Positions 39,853-46,553 of a stretch of DNA of 64,000 nucleotides are shown piece by piece (position 1 is the stretch's first letter; each line of letters begins with the position of its first letter). The stretch is from contig QHRW01000118.1 of NCBI GenBank assembly GCA_003220265.1, positions 23,186 to 87,185 on the forward strand, given 5' to 3'. A program made the translations under genes and the position numbers. The notes below the pieces were generated by a model. It made no database searches, was not told where the DNA came from, and saw only the letters and a list, made by a program, of their open reading frames with translations. This DNA is from Candidatus Rokuibacteriota bacterium (GTDB lineage: Bacteria > Methylomirabilota > Methylomirabilia > Rokubacteriales > CSP1-6).

Positions 39853-41103
39853 CTACCGTCCCACGATCTCGCGCACCTTCTGGACGAGGGCGTCCACGGT
39901 GAAGGGCTTGTGCAGGAAGCCGCGGCCGGGATTCAGGCCGCGGTAGTCCTCCACGCTGTCCTCGAAGTCGCCCGAGAGATAGAGCACGCGGGCGGAGGCG
40001 CGGTACGGGCCGAGCCGCTGCAGCACGCCGTCGCCGGCCACGCCGGGCAGCAAGAGGTCCGCGATCACCAGGTCGATGGGACCCTGATGGCCGGTGCTGG
40101 CGGCCAGCGCCTCGTCGAGGTCGCGCGCGCTCAGCACGTGGTAGCCATGCAGCTCGAGGATCTCGGCGATCAGGTCGCGCACGCCGGGCTCCGGCTCCAG
40201 CACGAGGACGGTCGCCGCGGCGACCGGTGTCGCCACCGGCGGCTCGTCGCCGGCGTCGTGGCGGGGCAGGTACACGGTGAACGTGGAGCCCTGGCCAACC
40301 TCGCTCGCCGCCTCCACGTGGCCGCCGCTCTGGCTGACGAACGCGAAGACCGTGGCCAGCCCGAGGCCGGTGCCGCGGCCGGGCGCCTTGGTGGTGAAGT
40401 ACGGCTCGAAGGCGCGCGACAGCGTGGCGTCGTCCATGCCGCAGCCGGTGTCGGTGATCCGCACCATCACCGCGCGGAGGGCGCCGGTGGGGCCCTGCTC
40501 GAGGTCCACGTTGCCGGTCTCGATGGTGACGCGGCCGCCCGAGGGCATCGCGTCCCGCGCGTTGAGCAGCAAGTTCATCAGCGTCTGCTCGACCTGGCCC
40601 ATGTTCACGCGCACGCGGCCCAGCCGCGGGTCCAGGTCGAGCGCGACCTGGATCTGGTCGCCGAGCAGGGGCGCCAGCGTCCGCACGACGCCGCCGATGA
40701 CCGCGTTGATGTCGAGCGACATCGGCACCGGCGCGGCGGCGCGGCTCGTCGTCAGCATGTGCTGGGTCAGGTTGAGGCCCCACACCGCCGCCTTGCGAAT
40801 CGACTCGGCGCCCGTCCGCAGCGGATCGGTCGGATCCATGCGCTTGAGCATCAGCTCGCTGTAGCCGGTGATGACGGCCAGGATGTTGCTGAAGTCGTGG
40901 GCCACGCCGCCGGCCAGCCGCCCCACCGCCTCCAGGCGTCGCGCCTCGCGCAGCTCGTCGTCGAGGCGCCGGGCGCGCTCGCGCTCCTGCTCGAGTTCGG
41001 CGCCGAGACGCTCGACCTCGGCCAGCGCCTCCGACAGCGTCGCCTGACGCTTCATCGGCGAGGGTCCTCCGGACGAGCGGACGTCACCTAAGGTCGTCGC
41101 CAT
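39853..41103 (-). CDS. Cytoplasmic hybrid histidine kinase with C-terminal receiver
   Basis: Short coiled coil, H-box GVAHDFSNIL, NARDAM, YFTTK, GTGLGL, receiver IADLLLP. Start is ATG 41103 or 41055. Confidence 0.88.
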   Translation of the reverse strand: MATTLGDVRSSGGPSPMKRQATLSEALAEVERLGAELEQERERARRLDDELREARRLEAVGRLAGGVAHDFSNILAVITGYSELMLKRMDPTDPLRTGAESIRKAAVWGLNLTQHMLTTSRAAAPVPMSLDINAVIGGVVRTLAPLLGDQIQVALDLDPRLGRVRVNMGQVEQTLMNLLLNARDAMPSGGRVTIETGNVDLEQGPTGALRAVMVRITDTGCGMDDATLSRAFEPYFTTKAPGRGTGLGLATVFAFVSQSGGHVEAASEVGQGSTFTVYLPRHDAGDEPPVATPVAAATVLVLEPEPGVRDLIAEILELHGYHVLSARDLDEALAASTGHQGPIDLVIADLLLPGVAGDGVLQRLGPYRASARVLYLSGDFEDSVEDYRGLNPGRGFLHKPFTVDALVQKVREIVGR

Positions 41104-43003
41104 GCATCCCCGCTTCGGCGGGCGGATCCGGGAAGAGCGGGAGCTCGATCCGGAAGGTGGTGCCGCCGCCGGCGATGCTCCGGAAATCGATGCTGCCGCC
41201 GTGGTCCTCGACGATCTTGTGCGTGAGCGCGAGGCCGAGCCCGGTGCCACCGTCCTTGGTGCTGAAGAACGGATTGAAGACGCGGTCGGCATCGCCGGCG
41301 CTGATGCCAACCCCGCTGTCCTCGATCTCGACGCGCACGCGGCGAGCCCCCGTCGTGCGCGGGTGCCCGGGCAGCACGACGCCGGGATCGGCCCAGCCCG
41401 CGCGGACCGTGAGCCGGCCGCCCGAGGGCATGGCGTCGAGCGCGTTGCGGATGAGATTGACCACGGCCTGGTAGAGCGCGTCGGGGTCCGCCCACACCGT
41501 CGGCAGATCGCGCGCGTACTCGCGCACGACGCGGACGCCGGAGGACTCCATCTCGTGCGCGTACAGCTCGATGCCGCGCTCCAGCGTGGCGGGCAGCCGC
41601 ACGGGGGCGAAGGTCAGGCGGGCCGGCCGCGACAGCTCCAGCAGCCGCTCGACGATGCCGTTGATGCGCTCGAGCTCCCGCGGCACCACGGACTGGAACT
41701 TGGCGCGGAACTGCTCGTCGTCGAAGCGCCGCGTGAGGTGGCGGCTGAACGTCAGCAGCGACGTGAGCGGATTCTTGATCTCGTGCGCGAGGCCGGCGGC
41801 CAGGCTGCCGAGGGCGGCCAGCCGGTCGGAGCGGCGCAACCGCTGCTCGAGCTCACGGACCACCGTGATGTCGCGCATGGCGGCAATCACGCCGAGGTCC
41901 TTGCCGTCGCCACCCTTCAGCGGCACCGTGCTGATCTCGATCGGCAGCGTGCGGCCGTTGCGGCGGCGCAGCGTGGTCGTCACGCCCGGCGAGGCGGCAC
42001 GGCTGGCGATCGCTTCCATGAGGATCTCGCCGAGAGCGGGCGTCTCGGCGAAGACTTCCGTGCAGTAGCGCCCGGCCGTCTCGCCGGCGAAGAATCCCGT
42101 CATCATCTCGGCGGCGGGGTTCAGCGTCACCACGCGACCGTCGAGGTCGACGGTGACGATGCCTGTCGTCAGCGAGGCCAGGATGTTGTCCGTGTAGCTC
42201 TTGAGGTCCGCCAGCTCCTCCAGCCGCTGCCGGAGCTCGGCGTTGGCGTCCTCGAGCGCGCCGCGCTGCTGGCGGAGCTGGGCAGCCATGTGGTTGAAGG
42301 CGACGGCCAGCCGGCCGATCTCGTCGTCGGTGACCGGGTCGATGCGCAGGTCGAGCTCGCCGCGCGAGATCGCGGCGGCGCCCTCGGCCACGCTCTGGAC
42401 GGGCCGCGAGATGCGCCGCGCCACGATGGCCGCGGCCAGGCCGCCGACGATGAGCGTGGCCACCGTCAGCACGCCGAGCTCCCAGCGGGTCCGCCGGATC
42501 AACGCCTCCATGCGCTGCTTGGAGAGCCCCACGCGCACGGTGCCCCACTTGCGTCCCTGCACGATGATGGGCGCCGCGAAGTCGTACAGCGCCCGGCCGG
42601 ACTTGGTCGTGGTCTCCTGGATGAGCGGCTCGATGGTCTCGGCCGCTCGGCGGTCGACCGCGCTCGGCAGCATCTGGCCGATGCGCTCGACCCGCGCGCT
42701 CTCGGCGATGACCCGGCCGTCGGCGTCGAGGATGATCGCGTAATGCACGTCCTGCTCGATGGCCAGGCGCGCCACGTTCTGCTCGAGCGCGGTGAAGTTG
42801 TAGAGGAGCAGGTGGCTCTGCGAGATGGCCGCCAGGTCCTTGGCCAGCACCTGGCCGCGGCGCTCCGTCTCGTCGACGACGGCCGTCCGCTGCCGCTGCT
42901 CGACCACGACCAGCACGGAAACCATCACGAGGGAGATGACCGGCACCGTGCCCCACAACAACCGGGCCTGGAGAGAGCGCGGGCGAAGGCCGGCGAAGAT
43001 CAC
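41084..43003 (-). CDS. Membrane sensor histidine kinase (periplasmic Cache-like, HAMP, PAS, HisKA, HATPase)
   Basis: From GTG 43003: two TM helices, DEIGRLAVAFNHM, GIVTVDLDG, LAHEIKNPL, FFSTK, GTGLGL. Confidence 0.92.
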   Translation of the reverse strand: MIFAGLRPRSLQARLLWGTVPVISLVMVSVLVVVEQRQRTAVVDETERRGQVLAKDLAAISQSHLLLYNFTALEQNVARLAIEQDVHYAIILDADGRVIAESARVERIGQMLPSAVDRRAAETIEPLIQETTTKSGRALYDFAAPIIVQGRKWGTVRVGLSKQRMEALIRRTRWELGVLTVATLIVGGLAAAIVARRISRPVQSVAEGAAAISRGELDLRIDPVTDDEIGRLAVAFNHMAAQLRQQRGALEDANAELRQRLEELADLKSYTDNILASLTTGIVTVDLDGRVVTLNPAAEMMTGFFAGETAGRYCTEVFAETPALGEILMEAIASRAASPGVTTTLRRRNGRTLPIEISTVPLKGGDGKDLGVIAAMRDITVVRELEQRLRRSDRLAALGSLAAGLAHEIKNPLTSLLTFSRHLTRRFDDEQFRAKFQSVVPRELERINGIVERLLELSRPARLTFAPVRLPATLERGIELYAHEMESSGVRVVREYARDLPTVWADPDALYQAVVNLIRNALDAMPSGGRLTVRAGWADPGVVLPGHPRTTGARRVRVEIEDSGVGISAGDADRVFNPFFSTKDGGTGLGLALTHKIVEDHGGSIDFRSIAGGGTTFRIELPLFPDPPAEAGMHGDDLR

Positions 43004-43005
43004 GG

Positions 43006-44613
43006 CTACTGGAGCCAGATCTTCCGGAGCGGGATGTAGGGGTCGCCGAGCCCGTTGACCTCGACGCTCTTCACCGACGGCTGGAACAAACGCTCGTAGC
43101 TGTAGTGCCAGACCGGGAGCACGGGGGCGTCGTCCAGCACGAGCTGCTCGGCCTTGCGATACAGATCCACGCGACGCTGCGCATCGCGCTCGTTGCGGGC
43201 GGTGAGGAGCAGGTTGTCCACCACGGGGTTGGCGTAGCCCGTGTAGTTGCGCGGGCTGCGCGAGTGGAAGAGCAGGAAGAGGAAATTGTCGGGATCCGGG
43301 ATGTCGGCGTTCCAGGAGTACATGAACATCGGCGCCTTGCCGTCGATGAGCAGCCGGGAGAATGCGGGCCAGTCCGTCTGGTACTGGTAGGTCGCCCGGA
43401 TGCCGACGTCGGCCAGACTCTTCACGATGCGCGCGTGCTCCTCGAGCAGCCGATCGGTGCGCGCGCCCGCCCAGATCGTCACCGGTGGCAGGCCGGCACC
43501 GCGGGGATACCCGGCCTCGGCCAGCAAGGCCCGCGCGCGCGCAGGATCGTACGTCAGCGGCCGCACGCCGGGGTTGTAGCCGAGCGTGCCGAGCGGCAGG
43601 ATCGACTGGGCCAGGTGGTAGCGGCCCTGAAACACCTGCTGGATGAGACCCGCGCGGTCGATGGCGTGCACGATGGCCTGGCGCACGCGGCGGTCGTCGA
43701 GCGGCTTCATCCGCACGTTGAGCCCGTAGAAGCGCAGGTTGAACTGGGGGCGCTTGACGTACTGCCGGCCGGGCGCGCTCACCACGCTCCCGTGGTTGCG
43801 GGTGGGCACCGGCGACTCCTCGAGGTTGCCCTTGACGAACTCGTCGTAGACCGCGTCCCACGGCTCACCAGGAAAGATCCGGTAGATCACGCGCGCCAGC
43901 CGAGGCGGGCCGTCGAAGTAGTCGCGATTGGCGGCCAGCGTGATGGAGCGGCCCCGCTCCCACGCCACGAAGCGGAAGGGCCCGGTGCCGATCGGGCGCG
44001 CACCGAAGTCGTTGCCGGCGGCCTCCACGACATCACGCGGCACGATCTTGGCGTTTCCGGTGGCGAGCGCCGTCACGAACGGCACGAACGCCTCCGTGAG
44101 CGTGATCTCCACGGCGTGGGTGTCGAGGGCCTTCAGCCCCACGACGCTCCGCGCCCGGCCCTCGGCAAACTCGCGGCCGCCCTTGATCACCCAGAAGGTC
44201 TCGGCCGCGCTCGACTTGAGACGCGGGTCGAGGATCCGCGTGAACGAGAACACCACGTCGTCGGCGGTCACCTCGCGCCCGTGATGGAATCGAACGCCCT
44301 TGCGCAGCGTGAAGACCCACGTCAACCCGTCGCGCGATGCCGTCCAGTGCTCGGCCAGCGCCGGCATGATGGCCAGCGTCTGGTCGAATGCCACCAGGCC
44401 ATCGAAGATCTGCTGGGCGACCGAGCGCCCGTAGATGTCGCTGATGCGGGCAGGATCGAGCGTCGACGGATCGTTGCCGAGCGGCCGGCGGTAGTCGAGA
44501 CTCTGGGCTGCCGCCGCACCCGCGAGCAGAAGCAAGCACACCGTGAGCAGTGCGATGAGCGGGAGGGACGGCGTGGCGCCGTCCCTCACCGCGGCCAGTC
44601 CGCGCCAGCGCAC
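43006..44613 (-). CDS. Family-5 (OppA/DppA-like) peptide-binding protein, no cognate permease nearby
   Basis: DPSTLDP, IFDGLV, LRKGVRFH, GTGPF, VRQAIVHAIDR, W-x-AD-x-PDPDNFL. Start uncertain (GTG 44613 or 44589). Confidence 0.9.
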   Translation of the reverse strand: MRWRGLAAVRDGATPSLPLIALLTVCLLLLAGAAAAQSLDYRRPLGNDPSTLDPARISDIYGRSVAQQIFDGLVAFDQTLAIMPALAEHWTASRDGLTWVFTLRKGVRFHHGREVTADDVVFSFTRILDPRLKSSAAETFWVIKGGREFAEGRARSVVGLKALDTHAVEITLTEAFVPFVTALATGNAKIVPRDVVEAAGNDFGARPIGTGPFRFVAWERGRSITLAANRDYFDGPPRLARVIYRIFPGEPWDAVYDEFVKGNLEESPVPTRNHGSVVSAPGRQYVKRPQFNLRFYGLNVRMKPLDDRRVRQAIVHAIDRAGLIQQVFQGRYHLAQSILPLGTLGYNPGVRPLTYDPARARALLAEAGYPRGAGLPPVTIWAGARTDRLLEEHARIVKSLADVGIRATYQYQTDWPAFSRLLIDGKAPMFMYSWNADIPDPDNFLFLLFHSRSPRNYTGYANPVVDNLLLTARNERDAQRRVDLYRKAEQLVLDDAPVLPVWHYSYERLFQPSVKSVEVNGLGDPYIPLRKIWLQ

Positions 44614-44633: not shown

Positions 44634-44771
44634 TTACTCGCCGCCCGCGCCACCGTCGGCCGTGCCGATCGCCTGGAAGAGCTGCGTGGAGCCGGAGGTG
44701 CCGGACTCGATCACCGGAAGTGCGAGCAGGAACGAAGCGAGCAGGAGCACGGCGGCGAAGATCTTGGTCAT
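44634..44771 (-). CDS. 45-aa putative secreted signalling-peptide precursor (absent from ORF track)
   Basis: Manual translation MTKIFAAVLLLASFLLALPVIESGTSGSTQLFQAIGTADGGAGGE; strong RBS AAAGGGGAGG; signal-peptide-like N-terminus; typical host GC codon usage. Confidence 0.75.
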   Translation of the reverse strand: MTKIFAAVLLLASFLLALPVIESGTSGSTQLFQAIGTADGGAGGE

Positions 44772-44834
44772 GGACCTCCCCTTTCAGGAGCGTGGAGTCC
44801 CTCTCCATGAGGGCTCCGACGGGGGGAAGCCTAA

Positions 44835-44850
44835 AGCAAATCGGTCGCCA
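44835..44850 (-). promoter_or_regulatory. sigma54 (-24/-12) promoter
   Basis: The minus strand reads TGGCGA-CCGAT-TTGCT with exact GG-N10-GC spacing, about 64 nt upstream of the peptide ATG. Confidence 0.7.
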
Positions 44851-44923: not shown

Positions 44924-44940
44924 TGCACAGTAGCTGTGCA
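44924..44940. promoter_or_regulatory. NtrC-type enhancer palindrome
   Basis: TGCACA-GTAGC-TGTGCA, resembling TGCACC-N5-GGTGCA, about 75-90 bp upstream of the sigma54 site. A weaker site lies at 44997-45013. Confidence 0.6.
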
Positions 44941-45024
44941 TGGCGCCAGGCCGGCGTGGACGACAACGCGTTGGTTTTCTGCGTGTTTCGGCCGATTGGC
45001 CAACTGCGGTGCAGCGGTGGCCCG

Positions 45025-46452
<1,428 letters not shown>

Positions 46453-46553
46453 GGGGCTCGAATGTAGCACCAGGACGGCCCCGACGGATCCGTTTGTAAG
46501 CGTCTGAATTTCTGGGCATTGACGGACAGTGGCGCGACCGAAAGAATCGCGGC

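Follow-up and report, generated by a model that had tools for sequence, protein, structure and literature searches.

A 64,000-nucleotide stretch of contig QHRW01000118.1 (positions 23,186 to 87,185 of the forward strand) from a Candidatus Rokuibacteriota bacterium, referred to here as the window, carries on its minus strand a small open reading frame (ORF) for a 45-residue protein, MTKIFAAVLLLASFLLALPVIESGTSGSTQLFQAIGTADGGAGGE. The ORF lies between the gene for an NtrC-type sigma-54-dependent response regulator and the gene for a family-5 (DppA/OppA-type) substrate-binding protein (SBP), which is followed by genes for a membrane histidine kinase and a hybrid kinase (Table 1). The small ORF is almost certainly a real coding gene; it belongs to the core genes of the phylum and is conserved better than any other element of this compact sensory cassette. 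Purifying selection acts on it, relatives transcribe it, and throughout the phylum it keeps a sigma-54 promoter and stays linked to regulator, SBP and kinase.

Directly upstream of the small ORF is the ribosome-binding site (RBS) AAAGGGGAGG, followed by TCC and then the ATG, and a GGAGG/GGGGAG-type site also precedes the ATG in the listed orthologues. The window holds one copy of the ORF. The initial annotation of this region, made from the letters alone, had described a small ORF with a strong-looking RBS, a hydrophobic N-terminus and an acidic Gly-rich tail, all of which were confirmed on the minus strand, and it had noted correctly that the SBP frame stays open across the small ORF, which in the window it does up to position 45003. 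It had also placed an SBP start just after the small-ORF stop; this holds, with a measured distance of 20 nt to the first in-frame start (GTG 44613) and not the 21 nt given. Its further description of the ORF as missing from the ORF track, unannotated and hidden by over-extension of the SBP was not borne out: the mechanical ORF list does include the small ORF, the exact protein has already been called on 24 public contigs and its relatives stand in NCBI as 'hypothetical protein', and public gene callers start the SBP after the small ORF, generally with no over-extension. Some callers extend the small protein at its N-terminus (...LLKGE..M), for example in database entries P0032, P0047, P0057, P0061 and others. 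The similarity of these 'extensions' is nucleotide conservation of the 5' leader and Shine-Dalgarno (SD) sequence and not coding, since the same stretch, the leader at 44772-44826, reads in a different frame in the window.

Table 1 Features of the small gene and its cassette, with positions numbered from the first letter of the window
Feature	Position	Strand	Remarks
45-residue small gene	44634..44771	-	Stop codon included; ATG 44771-44769, TAA 44636-44634
Codons 1-23: n-region MTK, 15-residue hydrophobic h-region, then PVIES	44703..44771	-	By inspection
Codons 24-45: acidic Gly/Ser/Thr-rich tail GTSGSTQLFQAIGTADGGAGGE	44637..44702	-	Without Lys, Arg or Cys
Shine-Dalgarno sequence GGGGAGG	44775..44781	-	3 nt before the small-ORF ATG
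Sigma-54 -24/-12 promoter match TGGCGACCGATTTGCT	44835..44850	-	64 nt between end of core match and ATG
Perfect palindrome TGCACAG-TAG-CTGTGCA	44924..44940	.	NtrC-like 6-5-6 geometry; candidate enhancer (upstream activating sequence)
NtrC-type sigma-54-dependent response regulator	45025..46470	-	Immediately upstream of the small ORF
Orphan family-5 (DppA/OppA-type) SBP with own signal peptide	43006..44613	-	SBP_bac_5 1e-87; start GTG 44613 or 44589
Membrane histidine kinase: sCache_3_2, HAMP, PAS, HisKA, HATPase	41084..43039	-	Pfam; syntenic; exact start uncertain
Hybrid kinase (HisKA, HATPase, receiver domain)	39853..41103	-	Last operon gene; syntenic in L001-L003 and many other loci

Evidence for a conserved protein-coding gene

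Searching 5.8 billion protein clusters brought up 453 relatives of the small protein, almost all of 43-46 residues, which had been called independently by the JGI, ENA, Logan and NCBI pipelines; those with a named source are labelled Methylomirabilota or Rokuibacteriota. A profile search against 1.84 billion representatives at 50% identity gave only 63 matches, and the convincing ones are nearly all built to a single plan, in which a hydrophobic N-terminus is followed by APV[IL]E[ST]G, a variable linker of 6-9 residues, F-x-A-[IV]-[GS]-x-A-[DE] and a Gly run. Scanning one genome per GTDB species yielded 79 small-ORF loci, nearly all of them in metagenome-assembled genomes (MAGs) of Rokubacteria/Methylomirabilota, with a few on contigs binned to other phyla, most of which are short. 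When the peptide was scanned against Pfam, 0 families matched at E ≤ 0.01, and against NCBIfam 0 families matched at E ≤ 1; a scan of IMG/VR with the family alignment found no relative on a viral contig, and a literature search found no paper describing the small-protein family.

Substitution patterns in the 79 sequences are those of a translated frame under constraint. In a codon alignment, entropies summed to 26.6, 19.1 and 50.0 for codon positions 1, 2 and 3, and across the block P19-A38 the first two positions are nearly invariant while third positions are free to vary. The ratio of nonsynonymous to synonymous substitution rates (dN/dS, NG86) was 0.27 overall, 0.35 in the N-terminal segment and 0.20 in the tail. 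The frame of the SBP is offset from that of the small ORF by 2, 1 or 0 in 49, 17 and 15 loci, respectively, it is closed by a stop across the small ORF in 37 of 81 loci, and in the 15 loci where the two genes share a frame they are nevertheless split by the small-ORF stop. Because the offset varies and the SBP frame is so often closed, there is no conserved SBP extension, and the proposal of a separate small gene with its own conserved frame has withstood the test posed for it in the initial annotation, namely whether orthologous regions conserve a long SBP N-terminus at the expense of the small frame.

The sets of 79-82 loci used here were ascertained through the peptide itself, and 80 metagenome loci found with an SBP-only alignment served as a check on this bias. 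The small ORF was present in 74 of the 75 SBP-ascertained loci with at least 330 nt of upstream sequence, counts that are not all independent, as the metagenome samples overlap. A double occurrence was seen in the assembly CAZXPE01, which has two loci (L015 and L029), in both of which an SBP gene comes after a peptide gene; the two peptides differ, L029 shows the regulator and the L015 contig stops shortly before its peptide gene begins, and the pair represents either true paralogy or a bin that mixes two strains.

Layout and conservation of the small protein

Within the cassette, the part of the small protein that follows the hydrophobic segment changes least. Taken as median identity to the window copy over 78 species, residues 19-42 reach 83%, compared with 62% (SBP), 65% (kinase), 72% (regulator) and 75% (the neighbouring YifB). 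The N-terminus, MTK and 15 hydrophobic residues, varies yet stays hydrophobic. Conservation begins inside the hydrophobic segment (S13, L15) and becomes near-absolute at P19-V-[ILV]-E-S-G-T, after which a variable linker with insertions and deletions leads to F32-Q-A-[IV]-G-[TN]-A-[DE]-G-G. The extreme C-terminus is the least conserved part, with a Gly run of varying length and a last residue that may be Y, W, F, D, E, G, I, M or S, among others. With the constrained block at residues 19-42, this pattern does not support the earlier suggestion that the mature product is a short C-terminal fragment.

By inspection, the end of the hydrophobic segment presents a putative signal peptidase I context, with Pro at -5, an aliphatic residue (Ile) at -3, Glu at -2 and Ser at -1, followed by Gly. 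Cleavage after Ser23 would fit such a site and would give a 22-residue acidic peptide, and a cleaved precursor is plausible on this basis. The acidic tail and the positive N-terminus fit the positive-inside rule and an export topology, and it is very likely that the small protein is either exported or inserted in the membrane. The tail carries no hallmark of an effector, being neither cationic nor amphipathic, and Cys is missing from most members. AlphaFold2 modelled the peptide alone as one long helix over residues 2-40 (pLDDT, the predicted local distance difference test, 81), a result that is uninformative as a whole, with residues 2-20 as a confident helix.

Promoter, leader and transcripts

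The promoter match upstream of the small ORF, TGGC-N7-TTGC, is one of two sigma-54 matches in the 64 kb, where 0.76 would be expected by chance. Across the family, 81 of 82 loci have a TGG[CT]-N8-TGC element between 61 and 98 nt ahead of the ATG, set in sequence that otherwise diverges. The sole locus without a promoter match, L075 (2185-5377), has none within 300 nt upstream, and its regulator lies ~3 kb from the small gene. In the window, the palindrome listed in Table 1 starts 90 nt upstream of the -24 element and is also similar to the general NtrC consensus. Of 77 orthologous upstream regions, ~25 contain TGCAC-N7-GTGCA sites (at least 9 of 10 matches), frequently a pair spaced 19 nt apart, and conservation of the candidate enhancer across loci is thus only partial. 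Folding of the 5' leader gave no significant structure (z = -0.45). The small ORF thus heads a sigma-54 transcript, for which the adjacent activator would be the simplest controller, and it is probably the most strongly translated cistron of the operon.

Transcription was followed in public RNA data. Words of a 461-nt segment around the ORF were found in 20 metatranscriptome runs, compared with 0 runs for an equal-sized segment from the body of the SBP gene; a control segment from the AAA+ domain of the regulator was also found in 20 runs, and since that domain is conserved across bacteria only the SBP control is informative. In all four RNA runs examined, contigs of relatives (89-96% identical) cover the small ORF, and one such contig spans the small ORF and 300 nt of the SBP gene and is therefore polycistronic. 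Two RNA contigs end at 44799-44800, downstream of the predicted transcription start near 44824; the contigs are assembler products, which show presence and not levels or exact ends.

The partner genes

The order regulator, peptide, SBP, Cache kinase, hybrid kinase was seen in essentially every locus long enough to show it, and the cassette is flanked by YifB, isochorismatase, SLT, Lon and Liv transporter genes. The regulator, which is syntenic in nearly all loci whose contig reaches far enough, matches Response_reg (6e-31), Sigma54_activat (5e-72) and HTH_8 (5e-10) in Pfam, corresponding to receiver, AAA+ and Fis-type helix-turn-helix domains, and is separated from the small ORF by a 253-nt spacer. 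The second of the two possible SBP starts, the GTG at 44589, gives MRDGATPSLPLIALLTVCLLLLAGAAAAQS, a typical signal peptide. The only transporter genes nearby are convergent BPD_transp_2 permeases of the Liv type, and no Opp/Dpp-type permease was found near the SBP in the contexts read; because the neighbouring permeases are Liv-type and convergent, the DppA-type SBP is regarded as an orphan. The locus shows two features of an AioXSR-like triad, an SBP beside a membrane histidine kinase without a cognate ABC permease, and an NtrC-type activator with a -24/-12 promoter before the regulated genes.

The best named or solved relatives of the SBP are peptide binders, with DppA (1DPP, 3e-58), 8UPI, HbpA and OppA ahead of the more distant PrgZ. 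In DppA, Asp408 is the anchor of the ligand alpha-amino group and Arg355 the clamp of its carboxylate. The Asp aligned with Asp408 is kept in 61 of 63 SBP orthologues and the residue at Arg355 is not conserved. Such a pocket would suit a peptide whose N-terminus is free and whose length exceeds that of a dipeptide, and it does not indicate which peptide. The SBP diverges unusually fast, in that regulator pairs 80-85% identical correspond to a median SBP identity of only 65%; across the phylum SBP identity plateaus near 63%, with ~70 columns invariant.

Tandem copies and divergent homologues

In one subclade, with tails ...VFQAVGNACDGGGGGW, the small gene has been amplified to 2-5 copies in tandem. 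Locus L064 (6001-7004) has five copies, in a 216-bp unit repeated 4.5 times at 98% identity with an SD of its own for each unit, and L072 has four diverged copies with differing linkers (PNQVH, PSHVH, PSHAR). Two copies each are present in L057, L068 and L078 and in two metagenome loci (L131, L162). At L054 (5784-6862) there are five copies, of which three are apparently frameshifted after residue 25; we take the MAG series to which this locus belongs to be long-read assemblies, in which homopolymer or sequencing error is possible instead of pseudogenes. Tandem amplification suggests that the product is needed in quantity, as would be the case, for example, for a secreted peptide. Divergent homologues (e.g. 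MRTLLAIVTILVLGLFVAPVIEHETAATNMFHAIGNAECGAGGD) were also found at L084:6001-6135 and L083:446-583, among many uncharacterised short ORFs, in a setting that may be mobile-element or phage-like. A PHROGs scan of eight neighbours of the L084 homologue gave no matches, and a DUF6197 gene lies close to the homologue in L083.

Discussion

Given its position and conservation, the small protein is likely to act functionally with the adjacent two-component system. As to how it does so, we favour a reading, to which we give a probability of roughly 40%, in which it is the precursor of a cleaved, soluble ligand of the SBP and kinase and closes an autoregulatory loop. The phosphorylated NtrC-type activator would bind the upstream palindrome and fire the -24/-12 promoter, and the 45-residue product would be inserted or exported via its N-terminal hydrophobic segment. 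Signal peptidase I would then cut after Ser23 (between PVIES and GT) to leave a 22-residue acidic Gly-rich peptide in the periplasm, where this peptide, with its free N-terminus, would be bound by the co-encoded DppA-like SBP. The loaded SBP would set the activity of the Cache kinase, and the kinase would feed back on the activator to give a self-contained self-signalling loop. In this scheme we infer export, the cleavage site, binding by the SBP and the sign of the feedback. The ligand reading is favoured because a peptide-type SBP stands without a transporter, the small gene is the first cistron, it has been amplified, and its product has a signal-peptide-like architecture.

A number of observations weigh against this reading. 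The tail is nearly invariant across the phylum (83% identity versus 62% for the SBP), whereas peptide pheromones usually diversify. Co-diversification of signal and receptor into pherotypes was not seen, as the tail is 83% identical and there is no positive covariation, and a classical pherotype-style quorum signal was rejected for the reason that the peptide hardly varies. In a partial Mantel test, peptide and SBP showed no covariation and the correlation was negative, in a comparison with little power given that SBP identity saturates at ~63%. When AlphaFold2 was given a natural read-through fusion of peptide and SBP (from L031, with the stop read as Gly), the tail was returned as coil with a pLDDT of 20-29, which lends docking no support, although the fusion model is weak here, being a monomer model with only 6 peptide rows. 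The invariant Glu at -2 and the conserved S13, L15 and P19 go beyond mere signal-peptide needs, and in some clades the hydrophobic stretch runs to ~22 residues, closer in appearance to a genuine membrane anchor. To act between diderm cells, a 2-kDa peptide would have to find a way across the outer membrane. The surroundings of the divergent homologues in L083 and L084 contain no SBP, kinase or sigma-54 regulator nearby. Finally, the lone exception among the SBP-ascertained loci, L164 (2010-2400), has no small ORF and yet keeps two TGCACC-N5-GGTGCA sites and a TGGC-N7-TTGC promoter, and the gene can therefore be lost. In L164 the enhancer-like sites come right after the regulator stop, and the promoter, TGGCGCGAAACTTGC, lies ~130 nt before the SBP start. 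Stated in full, as a gene-encoded, Sec-exported peptide signal of an uncultured diderm phylum that is read by an orphan DppA-type SBP and a Cache kinase and drives its own sigma-54 promoter, the proposal is doubtful.

Nearly as likely as the ligand reading, and likewise tentative, is that the small protein stays uncleaved as a single-pass N-in/C-out modulator, whose ~25-residue periplasmic tail and conserved SFLLxAPVIESGT motif at the membrane interface would contact the Cache kinase or tether the SBP. Kinase activity would then possibly be tuned by a feedback element, as in MgrB-PhoQ or ZraP-ZraS, and the promoter does suggest that the small gene is induced by its own system. The Glu at -2, the conserved residues of the hydrophobic stretch and the clades with ~22 hydrophobic residues would fit an uncleaved anchor equally well: conservation runs into the hydrophobic segment and its interface (S13, L15, P19, E22), several clades have the long stretch, and residues 2-20 are the part that AlphaFold2 models as a confident helix. 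No partner matches the conservation of the tail, a pattern expected for an interface with a conserved machine, and tail distances correlate with those of kinase and regulator (r 0.48-0.58) and hardly with those of the SBP (r = 0.13). On the other hand, a first cistron with the strongest SD and up to 5 tandem copies fits excess product better than a stoichiometric partner, the Pro -5/Ser -1 arrangement fits a signal-peptidase site, and the protein has no Pfam match to MgrB or to any small-regulator family.

It is improbable that the small protein is output and not input, that is, the main regulated product of the system, such as a periplasmic or envelope-protective, metal-binding or matrix peptide with no sensing role, while the system itself senses an external peptide or nutrient. 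The gene is the first and best-translated one behind the only recognisable sigma-54 promoter of the locus, its tandem amplification would fit an abundant effector, the divergent homologues stand outside any two-component context, and the DppA-like pocket could equally bind environmental peptides. However, the near-obligate linkage to SBP and kinase (74 of 75 loci) and the phylum-wide invariance suggest a specific partnership, the tail lacks any feature by which an effector could be recognised, and no other target genes are evident.

Far less probable still is a leader peptide or monitoring substrate of the SecM, MifM or VemP kind, in which translation or stalling of the small ORF would control translation of the SBP 20 nt downstream. 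The export signal, the highly conserved C-terminal block and a stop that usually lies 2-40 nt before the SBP start would suit such a role. Between the hydrophobic segment and the stop, however, there are only 24 residues, which is probably too short for the signal to exit the ribosome tunnel and be pulled; the tunnel length required for pulling has been established by force-profile work. Moreover, the downstream gene encodes an SBP and not a Sec or YidC factor, its distance varies from 2 to 357 nt, the 5' leader is without significant structure, and tandem arrays of complete units and homologues without a downstream SBP do not fit. The last alternative, that there is no gene at all and that what is conserved in a chance open frame is an element of the DNA or RNA or else a longer SBP N-terminus, draws on the plentiful long open frames of GC-rich DNA and on the open SBP frame in the window, and is effectively refuted by the comparative data: third-position variation with a dN/dS of 0.2-0.27, conserved start codon, SD and length, and an SBP frame that changes offset, is closed in 37 of 81 loci and is separated by the small-ORF stop in the 15 that share it.

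Several known classes of small protein were considered and rejected. The conserved neighbours are only regulator, SBP and kinases, with no maturation enzymes such as a cyclase, dehydratase, radical SAM protein or protease/exporter, as would be expected for the precursor of a ribosomally synthesised and post-translationally modified peptide, and neither a gene for a TPR-containing/RRNPP receptor nor an Opp/Dpp permease, as for a Phr/RRNPP-type peptide, was present in any context read. A lipoprotein was rejected for want of a Cys, a type IV pilin or Flp protein for the wrong motif order, a C-terminal sorting signal for the N-terminal location of the hydrophobic segment, and an RTX-like Ca-binding repeat for a motif order that does not fit.

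Comparison with known systems

Among the closest counterparts of the cassette are AioX-AioS-AioR, which senses arsenite in Agrobacterium/Rhizobium NT-26, and PgtC-PgtB-PgtA, where, as here, a transporter-less SBP is encoded beside a membrane kinase and an NtrC-type activator and a -24/-12 promoter gives the output. They lack a co-transcribed mini-protein, use other SBP families and respond to small inorganic or organic ligands, whereas the present cassette has an SBP of the DppA/OppA type and a 45-residue, presumably exported protein at the head of its operon. LuxP-LuxQ-LuxO of Vibrio (autoinducer-2) is like the proposed loop in that a self-made signal is bound by a periplasmic SBP that gates a membrane kinase with a sigma-54 activator downstream, but its signal is an enzyme-made furanosyl compound and LuxP is of the ribose-binding type, while the candidate signal here is gene-encoded in the same operon.

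Small exported or membrane proteins that are induced by a two-component system and act on the periplasmic side of its kinase are known from MgrB-PhoQ (47 residues), ZraP-ZraSR and CpxP-CpxA. In size and topology the protein described here resembles MgrB, and its sigma-54 control resembles that of zraP, ZraR being sigma-54-dependent. It has no sequence or family relation to these proteins, the periplasmic Cys of MgrB is absent (most members have no Cys at all), and, unlike in those systems, an SBP joins in as third component and the small gene sits inside the sensor operon. The Phr, PapR and NprX pro-peptides of Firmicutes, with OppA and PrgZ, likewise involve pre-peptides of ~40-45 residues with a Sec signal and recognition by a family-5 SBP. 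They act after Opp import on cytoplasmic RRNPP receptors, and what matures from them is a short C-terminal piece that diversifies rapidly; the present cassette, in contrast, lacks a permease and has a kinase as the partner, and its peptide is conserved over the whole 24-residue block and least of all at the C-terminus. SecM, MifM and VemP share the combination of an export signal with a conserved C-terminal block just upstream of the next gene, but the ORF here is far shorter, the downstream gene encodes no translocon factor, and tandem arrays and stand-alone homologues occur.

What is known, then, is the triad of SBP, kinase and sigma-54 regulator (AioXSR, PgtABC and, in logic, LuxPQ-LuxO) and the existence of small proteins that feed back on kinases; what is new is a co-transcribed, phylum-wide and presumably exported 45-residue protein that heads such a cassette and is paired with an orphan SBP of the DppA type. 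Proteins of this size are often missed in annotation and rarely given a function, and the top conservation of this one within its cassette points to a specific job. Either way, the family merits a name and a profile so that annotation can drop 'hypothetical'. The circuit consists of five genes and one promoter, and reconstitution in a laboratory host should therefore be feasible though no Rokubacterium has been cultured. If the small protein is a membrane-anchored modulator, it would bring a new family to the kinase regulators of the MgrB/ZraP class. Should it instead be the ligand of its own cassette, gene-encoded peptide signalling through an SBP and a kinase would extend to diderms, beyond the Firmicute models, and Rokubacteria would use a loop for peptide autoinduction, or for self-reporting in the periplasm, of a design that is not described from Gram-negatives, with a signal that is almost invariant across the phylum.

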